Positions 5,219-64,000 are shown, counted from the first letter of the stretch. The stretch: DNA of 64,000 nucleotides from an uncultured cyanobacterium (GCA_963710605.1 CAVQBA010000005.1:268075-332074), one strand, 5' to 3'. Made by a program: numbers and translations. Notes: a model not told the origin generated them from the sequence alone.

Positions 5219-6094
5219 ATGACAAAAGTAGCAGTTTTCGGGATGGGACTTATGGGGCATCCAATGGTGATTAATTTAGCTAATAACGGTATTTCTGTGA
5301 TAGCTTATAATCGATCGTCATCTAAGTTAGAATCTTTACAATCGCAAGACAATATTGCAGTCACCACAAACCCGATTGAAGCGATCGAATTTGCTGATTG
5401 TCTAATTTTGATGCTTAGTGATTATCAGGCGATTAAACAAGTTATTTTCGCTGATACGGCTGATTTAACCGCCAAAACAGTGATCCAAATGGGTACAATC
5501 GCCCCCGATGAAAGTAAAGCATTATTAGAGCAAATCCAAGCTAAAGACGGAGAATATTTAGAAGCACCCGTTTTAGGAAGCATTCCTCAAGTCAAAAGCG
5601 GTGAATTACTAATCATGGTGGGGGCAACAGAAAATCAATTTCAGCAATGGCAAAAATTACTAACTCACTTTAGCCCTAAACCTCTGCTTGTTGGTGAAGT
5701 AGGTAAAGCCTCAGCTTTAAAACTTGCTCTCAATCAAATGATTGCTGGTTTGACAAGTACTTTTGCCTTAAGTTTGAGTTTTGTGCAACAACAAGGAGTA
5801 GAAGTCGATACCTTTATGGAAATTCTGCGTGATAGTGCTTTATATGCTCCGACATTTGACAAAAAATTATCCCGAATGTGCGATCGTAATTTTAGTAATC
5901 CTAATTTTCCTAGCAAGCATTTATTAAAAGATATTAATTTATTCTTGACATCTGCTCAAACTAAAGGTTTAAATACAAAAGGTTTAGAAGGAATAGAAAC
6001 GATCGTTGCTCAAACTACAAAAAACGATCTAGCTGATAGTGATTACTCTGCTTTAATTGAAATGATTAGAAGTCAAACAATTGACAACGTCTAA
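5219..6094 (+). CDS. NAD(P)-dependent oxidoreductase, 3-hydroxyisobutyrate dehydrogenase family
   Basis: GMGLMG Rossmann motif, YLEAPVLGS, KLALN, LLKD. Confidence 0.9.
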   Translation: MTKVAVFGMGLMGHPMVINLANNGISVIAYNRSSSKLESLQSQDNIAVTTNPIEAIEFADCLILMLSDYQAIKQVIFADTADLTAKTVIQMGTIAPDESKALLEQIQAKDGEYLEAPVLGSIPQVKSGELLIMVGATENQFQQWQKLLTHFSPKPLLVGEVGKASALKLALNQMIAGLTSTFALSLSFVQQQGVEVDTFMEILRDSALYAPTFDKKLSRMCDRNFSNPNFPSKHLLKDINLFLTSAQTKGLNTKGLEGIETIVAQTTKNDLADSDYSALIEMIRSQTIDNV

Positions 6095-6191
6095 AATTAG
6101 CAAAATAGAAAATAGATTTATAATTAAGTAGAAAGTAGTGATTACAAATTAATTCTCCTCTGTTCATTGTTCACTGTTCACTTTTTACTGT

Positions 6192-6276
6192 TATAGCAGA
6201 GAACGAGTTGATTAGGACATGGTATAAGAACGAAAGCTATACCATATGAGCATTTTACCTTTGCACGAGTGCTATA
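6192..6276. mobile_element. MITE-like element with TATAGC...GCTATA ends
   Basis: Inverted termini TATAGCA/TGCTATA shared with four other intergenic elements in the window. Confidence 0.5.
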
Positions 6277-6346
6277 TTTGTTCTTGTCATTAAAGTTTCA
6301 TCTCTAGTTCACAAGAAAGTCACATCAGTTGTTTATAGTTATAAAT

Positions 6347-6410
6347 GTCAGCTTAAAACATAAGTTTTCCTCTTTTAGCTCCTTCGCACTTTAGGCTGAC
6401 TTTTTTTTTT
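6347..6410 (+). ncRNA. Candidate ~65 nt sRNA or leader/attenuator upstream of the Deg protease gene
   Basis: -10-like TATAGT at 6334-6339; GTCAGCTTAAA pairs with TTTAGGCTGAC; followed by T10. Confidence 0.4.
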
Positions 6411-6589
6411 AATTGTCTATACTGATAGTTAAGACCAAAAACAACTAGGAGCAAAATATATAATTATCTAATTAAAATCGATCGTCTTTGTCAAACCAGC
6501 AATAATTTTTATCTCTCAATCATAACTTAAAGATTTTCTCAATATATATTAATTCATTTATTCGTTAACTAATTACACTCATTTTGACT

Positions 6590-7813
6590 ATGAAAAACGG
6601 ACTTCGTCACTTAATCAAGAAAACAACTACAGGTGCATCTTTACTCTTGTTAGGTACAGGTATTGGTGTTAGTGTGAATTATCTAGTAAATACACCACAA
6701 ATATTTGCTCGTGGAGATAATCAAGAAACATTACTCACTCAACGATCTGAGCGATCGTCTTCCTCTCAATTTGTTGAAGGTGGTGATATCAACTTTGTTT
6801 CACAAGTCGTACAAGATGTTGGTCCTGCGGTAGTGAGAATTAACGCATCTCGTAAAGTTTCTAGTCGTCGAAATGTTCCCCCTATTTTTAACGATCCTTT
6901 TTTCCGTGAATTTTTTGGTGATCAAATTCCGCAACAACCTAACGAACAAATACAACAAGGTACAGGTTCAGGTTTTATTATTAGTGAAGATGGTAAAATT
7001 CTTACTAATGCCCACGTAGTTGAAGGGGCAAGTGAGGTAACAGTCAACCTCAAAGATGGACGAGTATTAGAAGGTAAAGTTTTAGGTAGCGATTCCTTAA
7101 CCGATTTAGCCGTAATCAAAATTGAAGCTGACGAAGAATTGCCTGTTGTGCAAATTGGTAACTCTGATGAGTTGATTATTGGTGAATGGGCGATCGCCAT
7201 CGGTAATCCTTTAGGCTTAGATAATACAGTTACTACAGGAATTATCAGTGCTACGGGCAGATCAAGTTCTCAAATTGGTGTCGGTGATAAAAGATTAGAC
7301 TTTATCCAAACCGATGCCGCTATCAACCCCGGTAACTCAGGTGGACCACTTTTAAACGCTAGAGGTGAAGTGATTGGTATCAATACCGCCATTATTAAAA
7401 ATGCTCAAGGGTTAGGTTTCGCCATTCCGATTAATCGTGCCGCTGAAATTGGACAAGCTTTAATCGCTGATGGCAAAGTAGAGCATCCTTATATCGGTAT
7501 CAGCATGGTTTCATTAAACGAGCAAACCAAAACACTAATTAACCAAAATCAACAACTTAATCTCACTGATGAAGAAGGTGTTTTTATCGCTAAAGTTATG
7601 CCTAATTCTCCCGCCGCTAAAGCAGGTTTACAATCAGGAGACATTATTTGGGGTATAGAAGGCATTGAAGTTAATGAGTCTTCTCAAGTACAACGTCAAG
7701 TCGCTTCTAGAAAAGTTGGTAGTGATATTACTTTGAATTTACTTCGTAACAATCGAGATCTTGATTTACCTGTCACCTTAGGTATTTTACCTAGTATGAA
7801 TTCTCGCCAATAG
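6590..7813 (+). CDS. HtrA/HhoA/HhoB family Deg serine protease with PDZ domain
   Basis: TNAHVV, DLAVIKI, IQTDAAINPGNSGGPL; C-terminal PDZ; N-terminal hydrophobic segment. Confidence 0.95.
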   Translation: MKNGLRHLIKKTTTGASLLLLGTGIGVSVNYLVNTPQIFARGDNQETLLTQRSERSSSSQFVEGGDINFVSQVVQDVGPAVVRINASRKVSSRRNVPPIFNDPFFREFFGDQIPQQPNEQIQQGTGSGFIISEDGKILTNAHVVEGASEVTVNLKDGRVLEGKVLGSDSLTDLAVIKIEADEELPVVQIGNSDELIIGEWAIAIGNPLGLDNTVTTGIISATGRSSSQIGVGDKRLDFIQTDAAINPGNSGGPLLNARGEVIGINTAIIKNAQGLGFAIPINRAAEIGQALIADGKVEHPYIGISMVSLNEQTKTLINQNQQLNLTDEEGVFIAKVMPNSPAAKAGLQSGDIIWGIEGIEVNESSQVQRQVASRKVGSDITLNLLRNNRDLDLPVTLGILPSMNSRQ

Positions 7814-58940: not shown

Positions 58941-59651
58941 ATGAGTGTAAATCTAGCCACAATGTTGAGAGAAGGTACGAAGAAATCCCATTCCATGGCA
59001 GAGAACATGGGTTTTATTAAGTGCTTTTTAAAAGGCGTAGTTGAGAAAAATTCCTATCGTAAATTAGCGGCTAACTTCTATTTCGTTTATAGTGCGATGG
59101 AAGAAGAAATGGAAAAATTAAAAAATCACCCAGTTGTTGGTCAAATTTATTTTCCTGAGTTAAATCGTGAAGAAAGTTTAGCTAAAGACTTACAATTCTA
59201 TTATGGTCCTAATTGGAAAAATGAAATCAAGTTAACTCCTGAAGGACAAGCTTACGTCGATCGTATTCATGAAATTGCTAAAAACAGTCCTGAATTATTC
59301 GCCGCTCACTCTTATACTCGTTACATGGGTGATCTTTCTGGTGGACAAATTCTCAAAAATATTGCTCAAAAAGCAATGAATTTAGATAAAGATGGCACTG
59401 CTTTTTATGAGTTTGAAACGATCGATGACGAAAAAGCATTTAAAACTATGTATCGTCAAGCCTTAAATGATGCACCAGTAGATCAAGAAACTGCTGATAG
59501 AATCGTTGAGGAAGCTAATGATGCTTTTGGGATGAATATGAAAATGTTTCAAGAGTTAGAAGGTAATTTAATTATGTCGATCGGTAAAATGCTATTTAAT
59601 AGCTTAACCTCTCGTCGCCGTCGTGGAAGCACCGAACTAGCAACTAACTAA
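58941..59651 (+). CDS. ho1: Heme oxygenase (biliverdin-producing)
   Basis: LREGTKKSHSMAEN, AHSYTRYMGDLSGGQ, EANDAFGMN. Confidence 0.96.
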   Translation: MSVNLATMLREGTKKSHSMAENMGFIKCFLKGVVEKNSYRKLAANFYFVYSAMEEEMEKLKNHPVVGQIYFPELNREESLAKDLQFYYGPNWKNEIKLTPEGQAYVDRIHEIAKNSPELFAAHSYTRYMGDLSGGQILKNIAQKAMNLDKDGTAFYEFETIDDEKAFKTMYRQALNDAPVDQETADRIVEEANDAFGMNMKMFQELEGNLIMSIGKMLFNSLTSRRRRGSTELATN

Positions 59652-59682: not shown

Positions 59683-60291
59683 ATGATCAACTTTAATTAC
59701 GAATATCGTATATATCCGAAGCCATCACAGGAAGAAACTCTCTTGCGATGGCTTTGTGTTTGTAAGCGAGTATATAATTATTGCTTGGCAGAGAGAAAAG
59801 ACTGGATAAAGTCTCGCAAGTCTCCAGTGAATCAATGTTCTTTGGTGAACGAGTATATTACCGCTGCGGATAAAAAGTATCCTGATTATTACTATCAAAA
59901 ACGACAATTAACTGAAGCTAAAAAAACTAATCCCGAACTCAAACAAGTACAATCTCAGGTACTCCAAGAAATTGTCGGGAAAGTGGACAAGGCTTTCAGA
60001 GTATTCCATAACAAGGGATACGGATTTCCTAGATTTCGGAAGAAAATTCGCTCAATGGTCTTTCCTCAATTCAAATCTTGTCCAATCGTTGGTAATATAA
60101 TTAAGTTACCCAAAATTGGACAAGTCGAAATAAGGTTACACAGACCAATTCCTGATGGATTTTTGGTGAAACAAGTCCAAATAGTCAAGAAGGCATCAGG
60201 TTGGTATGGAATTTGTACGATTCAATCACAAGGGAATATACCAAATCCAATTCCAGATTTATCTCATTCTAGCTTAGGAGTCGATTTGGGT
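59683..60291 (+). pseudogene. tnpB: IS200/IS605 RNA-guided nuclease TnpB, 5' half, interrupted at RuvC-I
   Basis: YEYRIYP, VYNYCL, GFPRFRK, LPKIG, LHRPIPDGF...SGWY, then LGVDLG followed by unrelated low-complexity sequence. Confidence 0.92.
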
Positions 60292-60383
60292 TATACAATA
60301 CAAATATTTAATAATAAACAACAACAACAAAGACCCCTTTTTTTTACCTAATAACATGTTAAGCTTATACATATATTTCTTCA

Positions 60384-61481
60384 TTGTGTAAAGTTTATGT
60401 TGTCTTTGCAAAGGGAATAGATCCCGTTACAAACGAACCAGTTTGGTTGATGTTTGATGAGGACTATCAAATTGTCGAACCAATACAACGTTTTTTGACG
60501 TTTATGACTACAACCAAATCACCTAATACCATCAAATCTTATGGACACGATTTAAGATACTGGTGGCTTTTTCTTCAACAACAATGTTTGGATTGGAGGG
60601 AAGTAAATGTCTCCGATTTAGAAAACTATGCTCACTGGCTCAGAGTTGGAGATAAAGCTGTCATCAATCTACAAGGAATAGAAGCCATTAGAAGTGAAAG
60701 TACCGTTAATCGTATGATTACGGGGGTAACACAGTTTTACGAATATCATATTGCCAACAAGACTGTGGACTTCAAACAGTTCGACAGATTTCATTTACCC
60801 TATGGCATCACAAACAGAAGTAGTAAAGGACTACTCACAGGTATTGCTAAAACTAAGCCCGTTCGTCAAAAATTAGTTAAGCTCAAAGGCAAGAAAAAGT
60901 TTGCAGGATGCTTAACAGATGAGCAGGTAGAAGTATTGGTCAATGCCTGTAATCGTTTAAGAGACAAGTTGATTATCCTTATGCTTAATGGTACGGGAAT
61001 GCGTAAAGGAGAAATACTAGGTCTAAAACATGAGGATGTGAGTGATTTTGGAGAAAACTACATTAAAGTAGTAAAAAGAAAAGATAACCCAAATGGTGCT
61101 TTGGCTAAAGGGCAAGAACGAACGATTCCTGTCATACCAGAGCTAATCCAAATGTACAACGATTATCTGCTTTATGAATATCCTGAAATAGAGTCAGAGT
61201 ACGTATTTATCAATATTTGGGAAGGAGAAATAGGTAAGCCCATCAGTCCTGATGTTTTGAGTGTCATGTTTACTCGATTATCCCAAAAAACGGGAATCAA
61301 GGTTTATGCCCATTTATTTCGTCATACTTATGCCACTCGTTTGCTCAAAGCAGGTTATTCTCCTGATAGAGTCAAATATTTATTAGGACACGCCAGTATT
61401 CAAACGACGTTAGATGTGTATTCTCATGTGATTGAAGAAGCAGACTTACGAAGAGTAATCGAACAGGAGGAAGAAGAATGA
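60384..61481 (+). CDS. Tyrosine recombinase 1 (Tn554 TnpA-like)
   Basis: SPNTIKSYGHDL, GMRKGE, HLFRHTYAT, LGHASIQTT...Y. The true start may be ATG 60397 (MLSLQ-KGIDP) with one A missing at ~60411. Confidence 0.93.
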   Translation: MCKVYVVFAKGIDPVTNEPVWLMFDEDYQIVEPIQRFLTFMTTTKSPNTIKSYGHDLRYWWLFLQQQCLDWREVNVSDLENYAHWLRVGDKAVINLQGIEAIRSESTVNRMITGVTQFYEYHIANKTVDFKQFDRFHLPYGITNRSSKGLLTGIAKTKPVRQKLVKLKGKKKFAGCLTDEQVEVLVNACNRLRDKLIILMLNGTGMRKGEILGLKHEDVSDFGENYIKVVKRKDNPNGALAKGQERTIPVIPELIQMYNDYLLYEYPEIESEYVFINIWEGEIGKPISPDVLSVMFTRLSQKTGIKVYAHLFRHTYATRLLKAGYSPDRVKYLLGHASIQTTLDVYSHVIEEADLRRVIEQEEEE

Positions 61482-62969
61482 ATGCAATACCAGATTGGAA
61501 TAGCCAACCTGAGTTATGGTTAGTAGAACAGAATGAGTCTGCTAGAGAGTTATTAAATAATCCTTTGCTACAAAAAGATGTTTGGCGAACCATTGAAGAT
61601 TTGGGGTTAAGTGTGAATCAACATCAAAAAGTTTTAACTATTAGATTTGATAAAATTCAACAAGATTGGTTGAAGCTGCTGACTAAGCTCTACATATTGA
61701 TTCGGGCTAAACGTAATTATTCGGCAATGTATCTAAAGAATGATGTTGCTTCTTTGAGGGAGTTCTCTATCTTTTTGAAAACTAAGTCTGTTTATAGTGT
61801 AGAAGATATCAATGAACAACTATTAGATGAATACGATTACTACTTACATTCAACGAAAAGCAAACAGACAAAAAAACCTTTATCCCAAAGAAGTATCTCT
61901 TTACGTTATATGACATTGATCAACTTCTTTAACCTTTGTCGGCAAGAAGGTTGGTTGGATGTCAATACTTATTGGTTTAAAGGTAAGTATCATGGTTCTC
62001 AAGCAAAGAATGACGAAGTAGAATACATCCCCGAAGAAGTATGGCAACAGCTAGATGAACACTTGCATTTGCTTCCCTCACCAAAGCAGAGAATGGTGTT
62101 AATCATTCGAGCAACAGGATTACGCATAGGAGAACTACTGAATTTACCTTTAGACTGTTTACGTAAGAGAGGGAGTGAATGGCGGTTGAGATTTCTGACA
62201 GAAAAGTATAAGACAGAGGATGAATTACCTATCTGTGAAGAACTTGTAGCCGTTATTAAAGAACAACAAGATTTTATTCGAGAACACTTTGGTGATACTT
62301 ATCATAATCTGTTCGGTAGCAACGATGGTATATTTGGAAAATATAACCCTGCTCCTAGAATAATGAAAGTAGATGGCTTTAGTCGTTGGCTTAATAAACT
62401 GGCAGAGGAACAAAATATCTGTACAAAAGAAGGAAATCTTTGGCATTTTCGTTCTCACCAATTCAGAAAGACTGTGGCAATCGGTAATGACTAATGCAGG
62501 AGTAAGAGACTTAATTATTCAAAAGTATCTACGTCACCGTTCTCCCGATATGCAGAACTACTACAAACATTTACTTAAGGAGGTAGTGGGCGAAGAGTAT
62601 CAGGAATTAATGCAGAGTACAAAGTACGTTGACAGTACAGGAAAGATAGTAAAAGAACATAAACCCAAAAATGTTATTACTGAGTTAATGCGAAGAAAAA
62701 TGTATCAGGTAACGACGAACTATGGGGAATGTCATCGCCCTGTTTTAAAATCACCCTGTCAAACTGTTAATGCTTGTTGGCAATGTGAACATTGGCTCAC
62801 TTCCACGGATGACCTAAACTACCTCAAACAAGACTTACAGAGAATAGATGAGGAATTGGAGATAGCTACTAATTTGGGTTTAGTTAGACAAAGTAAAGGA
62901 CTTACCGATGATAAAGAAAGATTAATTGTTCGTATTCAAGGGTTGGAGGGCAACAGTAATGGAAATTAA
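61478..62969 (+). CDS. Tyrosine recombinase 2 (Tn554 TnpB-like), frameshift at ~62480
   Basis: GLRIGEL, HQFRKT; removing one A gives VASVMTNAG...YLRH...NYY; C-terminal C-x7-C-x5-CxxC. ATGA overlap with recombinase 1. Confidence 0.88.
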
Positions 62970-64000
62970 TTGGAAACAAGACTATCAAGGAGAATTTATC
63001 TGCCCTAAATGCAATGAAATGCCTTTGAAATTAGGGGGGCTGAATAATGGTAAGGCAACAATTTCGATGCTCAAATTGCAGAGGTTCAGTCGTTTCTTCA
63101 ATTAATTTGAACAATCGTTCTCGTTATTTAACAGATAGATTGATTGATGAACAGGTTGATTGGGGACAAGACTATCACGGTGAGTTTATCTGCCCTGAAT
63201 GTAATCATTTAGGAATGGTAGTAGGAGGAATTAAGCAACCCAATAATAAAAGGCAATTTCGATGTCCTCACTGCCAAAAAATACAGCAGGATTCATGCAA
63301 TATCAAAGGTGGTTATGAAGCCATTGAAGACCCAACGAATAAAGGTGTGGTCTGGTATCGGAATCATAGGATAGAAGGCTTTGTTTGTCCTGAATGTAAT
63401 GCAATGGATATGTATATTGCAGGAATTAATAAGCAAAACAAAAAGACATTTAGTTGTCGAAGTTGTCGTAAAACTCAATACGATTATATTGAGTTAAATC
63501 AAGTAAATTTAAGTTATTTCACACAACAAGACAGACATATAAAACCATTTCAATGGCAAGATGAGCGATGGGATTGAGAAACCTTAATCTCAACTACAAC
63601 CCAAAAAATTTAACACATTCCATCGCTAACTTCAGTCAGATTAAGCAACAATGGTTGAAAGACAAAGCTAAGCAGTATGTCGAACATTTATGCAAAATAG
63701 AAAAGGCTTTTGGAACAATCAACCATGTTCTAGTCGCCTTCCGCTCATTATCTATTTACTTACAAACTACTGCTATTAGTGATTTTGAACAGATTAATCG
63801 TACAGTTTTTCTTGACTACCTATCAAAAGAGAAAAAGTTACTAAATCCAAGTTAACTCCATTAAGAGATTTTTTCTTTGTGGGTACAGTTAAGGGTTGGT
63901 TTGATATTGACCAAGATATTATTCGAGATGAAGACTATCCTAAACGTCGCCGAGGCAATCCAGATCCCCTATCACAAAAAGTTACAGAGCAAATAGAAGC
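62959..64000 (+). CDS. Probable recombinase 3 with three N-terminal zinc-ribbon repeats; three single-base frameshifts; incomplete at window end
   Basis: GGAGG RBS then ATG 62959; six CxxC motifs; then WDLR...NFSQIKQQWLKDKAKQY...EDYPK...PDPLSQKVTEQIE, paralleling the N-terminal half of recombinase 2. Indels at ~63052, ~63573 and ~63835. Confidence 0.72.

Follow-up and report, generated by a model that had tools for sequence, protein, structure and literature searches.

Why should an element that carries three tyrosine recombinases lie exactly within the catalytic codons of a gene for an RNA-guided nuclease? The question is raised by the end of the stretch analyzed here (the window: 64,000 nucleotides (nt) from an uncultured cyanobacterium, G000:C5:268075-332074, whose base 64000 is the last base of contig C5; our own G, C, and L numbers denote genomes, contigs, and loci), where a tnpB gene is broken by a co-oriented element that is inserted within the final Gly codon of its RuvC-I motif, GxDxG. 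A reading made from the sequence alone had proposed that the element uses these conserved codons as its attachment site and parasitizes tnpB. We consider it highly probable that the element is a ~6.9-kb site-specific transposon of the Tn554 family, which is directed by DNA sequence and recurs in the RuvC-I codons of tnpB. The gene is disrupted as the richest source of the preferred DNA word, not by design to attack tnpB.

On the left, the tnpB frame is open as far as GGA GTC GAT TTG GG, and from position 60291 onward the sequence is TTATACAATAC. The 5′ fragment that ends here (Table 1) matches Pfam HTH_OrfB_IS605 (E 4e-13) and profile positions 1-205 of the 389 of NCBIfam guided_TnpB (97.4 bits), and shows 72% nucleotide identity to the stretch C6:788916-789545 of an intact paralogue of 412 amino acids (aa). 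The edge of the element is sharp: From 60283 on, the window is matched at 99.8% identity by another copy on contig C1, which is unrelated upstream of 60283, and the junction sits 3.7 kb inward from the end of contig C5. The course of the gene described in the sequence-only reading, tnpB through GVDLG followed by a switch at 60291, is thus confirmed by the sequence itself, by both profile matches, and by the repeat boundary against C1. On the far side of tnpB, a heme oxygenase gene (58941-59651; Pfam E 8e-88) ends 31 nt 5′ of the tnpB start, and no Y1 tnpA adjoins the window tnpB there.

Because base 64000 is the end of contig C5, the right end was sought on other contigs. Contig C2 begins within recombinase 3 and overlaps the last 219 nt of the window (219/220, with one indel), and it is 98.3% identical to the C1 copy over 3.4 kb. 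The AT-rich right end terminates in ...GTATCAGATAA at C2:3412 and is followed by CTTAGG and then, from C2:3419 onward, by tnpB, where CTAC TCT AGT CTG ATA GCA... reads (G)YSSLIATSRNEIIDRPKF, in frame after the 6-bp footprint. The region C2:3369-3842 matches OrfB_IS605 (E 4.9e-14) and the start of TNB, the remainder of which lies at C2:9561-9875 (neither TNB piece reaches the cut-off of 26.3 bits, their scores being 20.5 and 22.0). The tnpB sequence on C2 is 76% identical to C6:788523-788894, which adjoins the stretch matched by the window 5′ half in the same paralogue (C6:788279-789545), and the joined gene, GVDLG-YSSLIATSRNE, has the same spacing as GLDLG-FTKILHTSKNE of the intact paralogue. 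By its domains over three pieces (HTH_OrfB_IS605, OrfB_IS605, and the zinc-ribbon TNB), the interrupted gene is TnpB. The suggestion that the 3′ half might resume in frame past the right end was borne out by this stretch of C2.

The second copy lies on the minus strand of contig C1, from C1:6913 down to 1, and sits in another tnpB 5′ half, which ends in GLDMG (guided_TnpB profile positions 2-205). Its flank is 99% identical to C6:583712-584435, inside an intact 420-aa tnpB with OrfB_IS605 and TNB domains, and the junction can be read directly against that gene: The intact C6 gene continues GAT ATG GGG ATA CGA..., whereas C1 has GAT ATG GG/T TAT ACA. The window and C1 target genes show no detectable nucleotide similarity to each other; since the two targets are unrelated in sequence, these are two insertions and not one duplicated region. 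An orphan 3′ half of the C1-type tnpB was found at no contig end of G000.

Relatives of the element were collected with recombinase 1 as query. Among 401 genomes sampled across the phylum, 12 had matches at E 1e-40 or better, and 47 of 401 genomes of the same order had matches at E 1e-60 or better (G000 included in both counts); the 19 other genomes of the G000 family gave no match. We examined 13 + 27 loci, to which one-protein scans added 10 from genome contigs (4 duplicates) and 6 from metagenome contigs; these scans gave few loci, and the survey is therefore a sample rather than a census. The hosts include Chamaesiphon, Calothrix, Nostoc, Fischerella, Stigonema, and a Chroococcidiopsidaceae metagenome-assembled genome, and one relative is located on the finished plasmid AP018282.1 of Chondrocystis sp. 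NIES-4102. Two architectures were seen, with three or with two recombinases, both followed by a homologue of the fourth open reading frame (ORF4) of the element, and a DnaB-type gene was present in 21 of the 40 scanned loci as well as in both G000 copies. In a recombinase tree of 52 rows (L041, L043, L044, and L045 were dropped, their recombinase 1 being partial), tnpB junctions are spread over at least four sub-lineages, each with its nearest sisters in other genes: L019, L021, and L022 beside L020, and L007 and L037-39 beside L034, are tree neighbours in unrelated genes at branch lengths of ~0.05. On this tree, changes of target are frequent and tnpB has been hit again and again.

The genes that these relatives interrupt were identified from 32 distinct left flanks (L025, L026, and L054 were left out for flanks below 16 nt; no left end was found in L036, L043, and L063; the pattern search for left ends mis-registered L023/L024). 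The RuvC-I codons of tnpB stand at the left junction in 4 of the 32: the window, C1, L020 on plasmid AP018282.1 (GFDFG/, with the 3′ half directly past the right end and both halves annotated by the depositors as transposase), and L061 on a metagenome contig (GADVG/). The right flank of L040 (G401) is likewise tnpB RuvC-I, TCTAGG followed by G-LKEFLTTSEGE (tblastn E 2e-35). A different motif of tnpB, RuvC-III, is entered at IDRDLN/ATLNL in the opposite orientation by L016 (G134:C1, ~2960 and 8630; tblastn and junction reading), a distant three-recombinase relative whose recombinase 1 is ~40% identical and whose genome, of another order, has a second copy (L017) elsewhere; the junction GDADL/N of L062, a motif recognized by eye only, we also take to be RuvC-III of tnpB. 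On AP018282.1, an IS200-family tnpA lies directly upstream of the interrupted tnpB.

Many other genes are targets. With profile support, these comprise endonuclease V (L034), RecD2 helicase (L030/L031), photolyase (L041), a CoiA_N protein (L006), a 23S-IVP protein (L032), the N-terminus of a Tn5-type transposase (L043), a group II intron reverse transcriptase (left flank of L040), and a Strawberry-notch-like helicase (L052). L064 enters a GIY-YIG protein by Pfam match, and L035 is assigned to GIY-YIG by that match together with flank similarity judged by eye; L007 interrupts a Walker A site, with a sub-threshold match to Pfam AAA_19 (22.2 bits; cut-off 25.1). From motifs recognized by eye only, we take L019, L037-39, L053, and L055 to lie in methyltransferase motif I, L013 in RecQ, and L056 in sigma-70 region 2. 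A profile search of the short flanks returned nothing for L019, L027, L034, L035, L037, L038, L053, L055, and L062. The idea that RuvC-I codons serve as attachment site therefore holds as a recurrence (window, C1, L020, L061, and the right flank of L040), and tabulating the flanks of recombinase-trio homologues, the check proposed with it, removed the exclusivity: The relatives are in many genes, and the site is not dedicated to tnpB.

Some of these sites share a DNA word. The sequence GGNNNNGAYNTNGG ends 7 of the 32 distinct left flanks, namely those of the window, C1, L020, L061, L034, L053, and L055. In G000 it occurs 129 times on both strands of 7.9 Mb, and 22 of these occurrences are tnpB RuvC-I sites. 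The tighter word GGNNTNGAYNTNGG occurs 67 times, again with 22 at tnpB RuvC-I sites, the two occupied ones included, and it is present in 19 of 19 uninterrupted tnpB genes with a placeable motif (the motif was unplaceable in 3 of the 22 genes examined). As 22 of the 67 word sites lie in tnpB, a preference for the word alone would place two of two insertions there about 1 time in 9. This 14-nt word, commoner in tnpB than in any other gene, suffices to explain the tnpB bias. The target is chosen by DNA sequence, not by gene, and the sub-lineage prefers GGN-NTN-GAY-NTN-GG, which is G-x-D-x-G written as DNA.

The ends of the element show how it sits in such a site. The left junction, attL, reads GGAGTCGA-TTTGGG-TTATACAATAC, and the right junction, attR, reads GTATCAGATAA-CTTAGG-CTACTCTAGT. 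A left-terminus consensus, TTATNNNATAC, is present in nearly all relatives, and a motif core, AACAACAACAA, stands upstream of recombinase 1 in 29 of 29 close-relative loci. In the eight elements for which both ends were read, the right terminus is GTATNNNATAA-like and is followed by six bases and then by the remainder of the interrupted gene. The left and right cores are identical in three of the eight, L019 (CGTAGG), L007 (TGTAGG), and L022 (AGCGCA), and differ at one position in L045 (TGCCAG and TGCCAA), at two in the window element with C2 (TTTGGG and CTTAGG), L020 (TTTCGG and TGTGGG), and L034 (TGTCGG and TTTTGG), and at four in L026 (TACTGG and TTGAGA). We found no long terminal inverted repeat between the element ends (best local score 19; shuffles, mean 15.8 and maximum 23). 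The heptamer TTATACA, singled out in the sequence-only reading, does recur at 60365, but it is ruled out as a meaningful repeat, since the window has 8 matches, fewer than the 18 that shuffled sequence would give.

Removing the element together with the right six bases restores the frame in all five elements read in this way (window, L020, L019, L007, and L034). The rejoined products are GFDFG-LKVFLSCSDNTEI for tnpB in L020, EPAVG-TGS for L019, GGPGVG-KT for L007, and AGVDVG-FKDNYT for L034, where the match to the endonuclease V profile continues, at positions 32-198, after a gap of 11.7 kb. The right six bases may also record where an element came from. Genome G594 offers one case: L045 has the right core TGCCAA, which is also the left core of L029/L044. 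This matches the rule described for SE and Tn554 elements, by which the donor's left bases become the right bases at the new site. The right footprints of the tnpB- and endonuclease V-borne copies (CTTAGG, TGTGGG, TCTAGG, and TTTTGG) would read as (D)-hydrophobic-G codons, which fits earlier residence at similar sites. CTTAGG, as GAC TTA GG, is the RuvC-I core of only one tnpB in G000, at C4:1256614 with an open 480-aa frame, which is possibly a former donor of the window element, a candidate and nothing more.

The protein sequences place the element with Tn554. A tblastn search of plasmids with recombinase 3 gave 271 records, many of them from Bacillus, Enterococcus, and Staphylococcus. On Staphylococcus aureus plasmid NZ_CP096533.1 the match falls within four consecutive genes, which encode a JAB-domain protein, a recombinase of 361 aa, an integrase of 637 aa, and a DUF6262 protein of 121 aa. 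From its layout, its sizes, and its JAB (RadC-like) neighbour, we take this set to be a Tn554-type module; the record does not name it. Recombinase 1 is 37% identical to the 361-aa recombinase over 352 aa (E 1e-80), recombinases 2 and 3 are 27% and 25% identical to the 637-aa recombinase (E 8e-39 and 1e-22), and the N-terminus of ORF4 is 38% identical to the DUF6262 protein (E 1e-16). Recombinases 2 and 3 both keep the aligned Arg, xxArg, His, and Tyr, with the first His of recombinase 3 changed to Lys. The comparison with Tn554 that the sequence-only reading had drawn from site-specific insertion into radC is thus one of real homology across the module.

Like the Tn554 family of Staphylococcus and Enterococcus, which includes Tn554 and Tn558, the element has the gene order of a TnpA-like protein (361 aa), a large TnpB-like recombinase, and TnpC/DUF6262, and it inserts in a specific orientation inside a conserved gene, without target duplication and with left and right 6-bp cores that may differ. 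Tn558 is reported to have typical left and right cores of GATGTA and GATCCA, respectively, and to cause no target duplication (PMC7843796). Our element differs from the Tn554 family in having two TnpB-like genes rather than one, the second with N-terminal zinc ribbons, a TnpC-like protein of 284 instead of 121 aa, an added DnaB-type helicase, possible short imperfect terminal inverted repeats (the 11-nt termini match at 8 of 11), and cyanobacterial hosts; in contrast to that family, with its one preferred site in radC (att554), the present one targets many genes. RIT (recombinase in trio) elements carry long terminal inverted repeats; the present element resembles them in its three adjacent, overlapping tyrosine-recombinase genes but has no long inverted repeats, a TnpC-like fourth gene, and Tn554-like proteins. 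We found no literature, among open-access papers and bioRxiv, on Tn554-like or three-recombinase elements in cyanobacteria, or in tnpB; a paper on cyanobacterial Tn7-like elements mentions, in one place, an element with tyrosine recombinases in comM (PMC9881144).

The element occupies window positions 60291-64000 and continues as C2:221-3412. Its genes encode, in order, a TnpA-like recombinase, a short TnpB-like one, a large TnpB-like one with zinc ribbons, a TnpC-like DUF6262 protein, and a DnaB-type helicase, after which a short AT-rich right end (~100 nt) follows. The recombinase trio starts ~100 nt past 60291, and its stops and starts overlap: The start of gene 2 overlaps the stop of gene 1 as ATGA, and an 11-nt overlap links genes 2 and 3. 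The C1 copy has an open frame for each of the three (361, 496, and 661 aa); the ATG of its recombinase 1 lies at the equivalent of window 60398. In the window copy, whose recombinase 3 runs off the contig to ~C2:1064, this start region is displaced by the loss of 1 nt near 60413. Compared with C1 over 3.7 kb, the window has single-base indels at ~60413, 62481, 63054, 63573, and 63832 and one substitution at 62591, and its gene 2 is split into two frames (near 62481) and its gene 3 into four (three shifts). The three coupled recombinase genes proposed earlier are thus present as a trio with overlaps, but genes 2 and 3 are not open in the window copy. Further downstream, 26 substitutions together with 17 indel events distinguish C1:1-3414 from C2:1-3410; they often form messy clusters, one of them in the Walker A region of the DnaB-type gene, and the frame breaks fall at different places in the two copies.

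The N-terminus of recombinase 3 (residues 1-175; C1 copy L046 2255-4237) contains three tandem zinc-ribbon units of the IS1/IS1595 transposase type, with a 50-nt repeat of 84% identity between units (63966-64015 in window numbering), and relatives have one to three units. ORF4 (284 aa) matches Pfam DUF6262 over residues 13-120 (48.7 bits; cut-off 29) and has a long C-terminal extension. The DnaB-type helicase on C2 has both DnaB N and C domains (E 2e-23 and 3e-72). The host has a dnaB of its own at C1:155971-159499, in an open frame of 1143 aa along which the DnaB_C profile matches piecewise, a layout that looks intein-bearing; the DnaB of the element is therefore an additional copy. In the plasmid-borne locus L066 (AP018282.1), two opposite-strand "transposase" genes at 5842-6859, between recombinases 2 and 3, form an insertion sequence within the element.

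Table 1. Features of the interrupted tnpB locus on the window (contig C5) and contig C2.
Feature	Position	Strand	Remarks
tnpB 5′ fragment	window 59683..60290	+	~203 codons, ending in the RuvC-I motif GVDLG
Left 6-bp core TTTGGG	window 60285..60290	+	the target's own copy of the crossover region; right counterpart CTTAGG at C2:3413-3418
Left terminus TTATACAATAC	window 60291..60301	+	8/11 match to the reverse complement of the right end TTATCTGATAC, C2:3402-3412
Left-end motif AATAATAAACAACAACAACAA	window 60310..60331	+	upstream of the first recombinase gene
Recombinase 1 (TnpA-like, ~361 aa)	window 60384-61481	+	Phage_integrase E 5e-30
Recombinase 2 (short TnpB-like)	window 61478..62969	+	496 aa in the C1 copy; Phage_integrase E 2e-18
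Recombinase 3, N-terminal part (large TnpB-like)	window 62959..64000	+	Phage_integrase E 4e-14; zinc-ribbon families
Group II intron reverse transcriptase, split	C2 4470-5102 and 6002-6955		broken by the IS630-like element
IS630-like element	C2 5105-6183	minus	inside the reverse-transcriptase gene
Second group II intron reverse transcriptase	C2 7776-9465		
Group II intron domain	C2:9522-9598		Rfam

The 3′ part of the window tnpB carries a second break. The gene stops again ~0.4 kb into this part, at C2:3818, between RuvC-II and the zinc finger, and picks up again at C2:9651, from where the zinc finger and the remainder of the protein are encoded; the intervening 5.8-kb nest (C2, L047, 3818-9650) holds the intron and insertion-sequence genes of Table 1. 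Rfam found no omega-RNA-like family on C2:1-12000, where its only matches were the group II intron domain and a tRNA. Precise excision had been suggested to restore tnpB. Locally it would, as either 6-bp core gives D-L-G in frame, but the gene as a whole would stay broken by the nest downstream, and the recombinase genes of the window copy itself carry frameshifts.

Could the element nevertheless be dedicated to tnpB, recognizing it as such (for example, through an extended RuvC-I attachment site) and silencing RNA-guided nucleases? Both G000 copies at RuvC-I codons, the further RuvC-I junctions of L020, L061, and the right flank of L040, the apparent hits in RuvC-III (L016, and L062 by eye only), and the match of the window footprint CTTAGG to exactly one other tnpB of G000, C4:1256614, would all be expected of such an element. 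We judge this unlikely, since the nearest relatives (branch ~0.05) lie in unrelated genes, the same DNA word was used in endonuclease V and in a pair of genes whose N-terminus reads LFxGxGGxDLG, the two tnpB targets in G000 have flanks that share only the word, and the word counts (22 of 67) make two of two in tnpB an outcome expected about 1 time in 9. The closest relatives, in endonuclease V, RecD2, photolyase, CoiA-like, GIY-YIG, and intron reverse transcriptase genes, thus speak against the tnpB parasite of the sequence-only reading. A programmed interruption element of the nifD, fdxN, or hupL type, kept by the host and switching tnpB on by excision, would likewise lie inside a cyanobacterial coding sequence, bear a recombinase, and be excised in frame, and a survey of such elements lists, among its entries, single-recombinase elements in two "transposase" genes of heterocyst formers (PMC4874684). 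Those elements, however, have one Xis-type recombinase and a tie to the heterocyst, whereas here a Tn554-type transposon module occurs in many unrelated genes and moves between genomes, and the window tnpB is also broken by the intron nest; this explanation is very improbable.

Another question is whether the element belongs with the GInts or the SEs (strand-biased circularizing integrative elements), three-integrase genomic islands of Proteobacteria, instead of Tn554. As in GInts, a 5′ module of three integrase-like genes and a small-protein gene is followed by cargo and a short AT-rich 3′ end, and the imperfect flanking direct repeats are consistent with the 6-nt staggered cuts described for GInts, for which variable attI sites are reported and a better-matched core raises integration tenfold (PMC5385486). 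The authors of that report also call GinD weakly similar to TnpC (PMC5385486). SE elements share with ours four core genes, including an ordinary and a large recombinase, and a 6-bp donor footprint (here in G594), six bases left of the donor site being carried to the right of the new site in the SE report (PMC10214605). Sub-threshold matches to NCBIfam GmtY (E 9e-10, 38 bits; cut-off 340) and VPA1267 (E 9e-4) point the same way. The catalytic residues do not: GinC is described as lacking the first catalytic Arg (PMC5385486) and Tfp, the middle protein of SEs, as lacking the RHRY residues (PMC10214605), whereas recombinases 2 and 3 align with Arg, xxR, His, and Tyr. Recombinase 3 keeps the catalytic Arg (GAMRPSE, aligned with CGMRISE of Tn554-type TnpB), and recombinase 2 retains R (GLRIGE), HQFR, RH, and Y aligned to the same protein. 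GInts were reported from Proteobacteria, Bacteroidetes, Firmicutes, and Verrucomicrobia and sit mostly at gene ends (ssb, ABC transporter) (PMC5385486), unlike our element inside catalytic motifs, and SEs are described only from Gammaproteobacteria (PMC10214605). Given the strong direct homology to Tn554-type proteins (Gin, Tfp, and Srap were compared by description only), we regard a GInt or SE assignment as quite improbable. An artefactual junction, in which a contig end is chimeric or a deletion happens to abut some unrelated island, is scarcely credible: The window does end at a contig end in a repeat, in an assembly of 7 contigs and 84.9% completeness with many indels between copies, but the junction lies 3.7 kb inside C5, the tnpB 3′ half was found, and the same junction geometry recurs on C1 as well as in independent public records, one of which is a finished plasmid.

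Several observations weigh against a sequence-directed, mobile Tn554-family transposon and temper our confidence in it. The window copy is frameshifted in recombinases 2 and 3, ORF4, and DnaB, and the C1 copy in DnaB; the breaks may mark inactive, decaying copies or an assembly prone to error. The window and C1 copies are putatively mobile. The C1 copy has no right flank, its contig ending inside or at the right end of the element, and the join of C5 to C2, which no sequence spans, is suggested by the 219/220-nt overlap and by the continuity of the split tnpB with its paralogue. Reads from three public runs (marine metagenome; 11% of sampled words) yielded one 255-nt contig inside recombinase 1 and nothing at junctions, leaving circles, empty sites, and indels without read support either way. 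The flanks of L040 (G401:C290, 2397 and 10422) are mismatched, with the C-terminus of a group II intron reverse transcriptase on the left and tnpB on the right, which we suspect reflects a later rearrangement between two copies. Across the family the flanks agree poorly: Of the 32, 24 have T at −4, 27 have a purine at −1 and 26 at −2, and 17 have G at −8. Several members sit at cores unlike NTNGG (AGCGCA, TCCCAC, and CTTAAA); the 14-nt word is therefore one preference and not a family rule. Since the cores of L026 differ at four of six positions, core similarity is not required, and recognition of the arms finds no explanation in this reading.

For the Tn554-family transposon that we favor, we infer from the junctions a circle, a strand exchange, and a role for each protein along the following lines. 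The recombinases would cut, in a staggered manner, on both sides of the 6-bp core, and the element would leave as, or be copied into, a circle carrying the six base pairs of the donor's left flank. The circle would then integrate at a new site, whose own six base pairs would end up on the left, and the donor's six would remain on the right as a footprint.

Four further ideas are possible but rather doubtful, and we offer them tentatively. In this putative cyanobacterial branch of the Tn554 superfamily, if the donor's six base pairs bias integration toward similar cores, an element in a catalytic motif would home to that motif again and again, both in paralogues and in further genomes, a form of target memory. 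The codons of short Gly/Asp catalytic motifs might act as portable attachment sites, among them GxDxG (in the RNase H-fold nucleases TnpB and endonuclease V), the DxN of RuvC-III, methyltransferase motif I, and Walker A. Multicopy tnpB might be a safe harbor, the largest reservoir of sites, with the element both exploiting and eroding the pool of RNA-guided nucleases. The conserved DnaB-type helicase, finally, might mean that the excised circle replicates.

Our findings extend the Tn554/GInt/SE group of multi-recombinase transposons to cyanobacteria, in a distinct form whose large recombinase is duplicated, whose TnpC is extended, and which has a DnaB-type helicase. The dozens of junctions, several of them two-ended, constitute a natural data set on target choice, with a 6-bp record of origin. 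For annotation, tnpB "fragments" that flank integrase clusters are halves of one gene, and in censuses of TnpB some copies are silenced, potentially reversibly. The tnpB bias has a simple explanation: Of all genes, tnpB carries the preferred word most often, and one mobile element therefore lands repeatedly in the catalytic codons of another.

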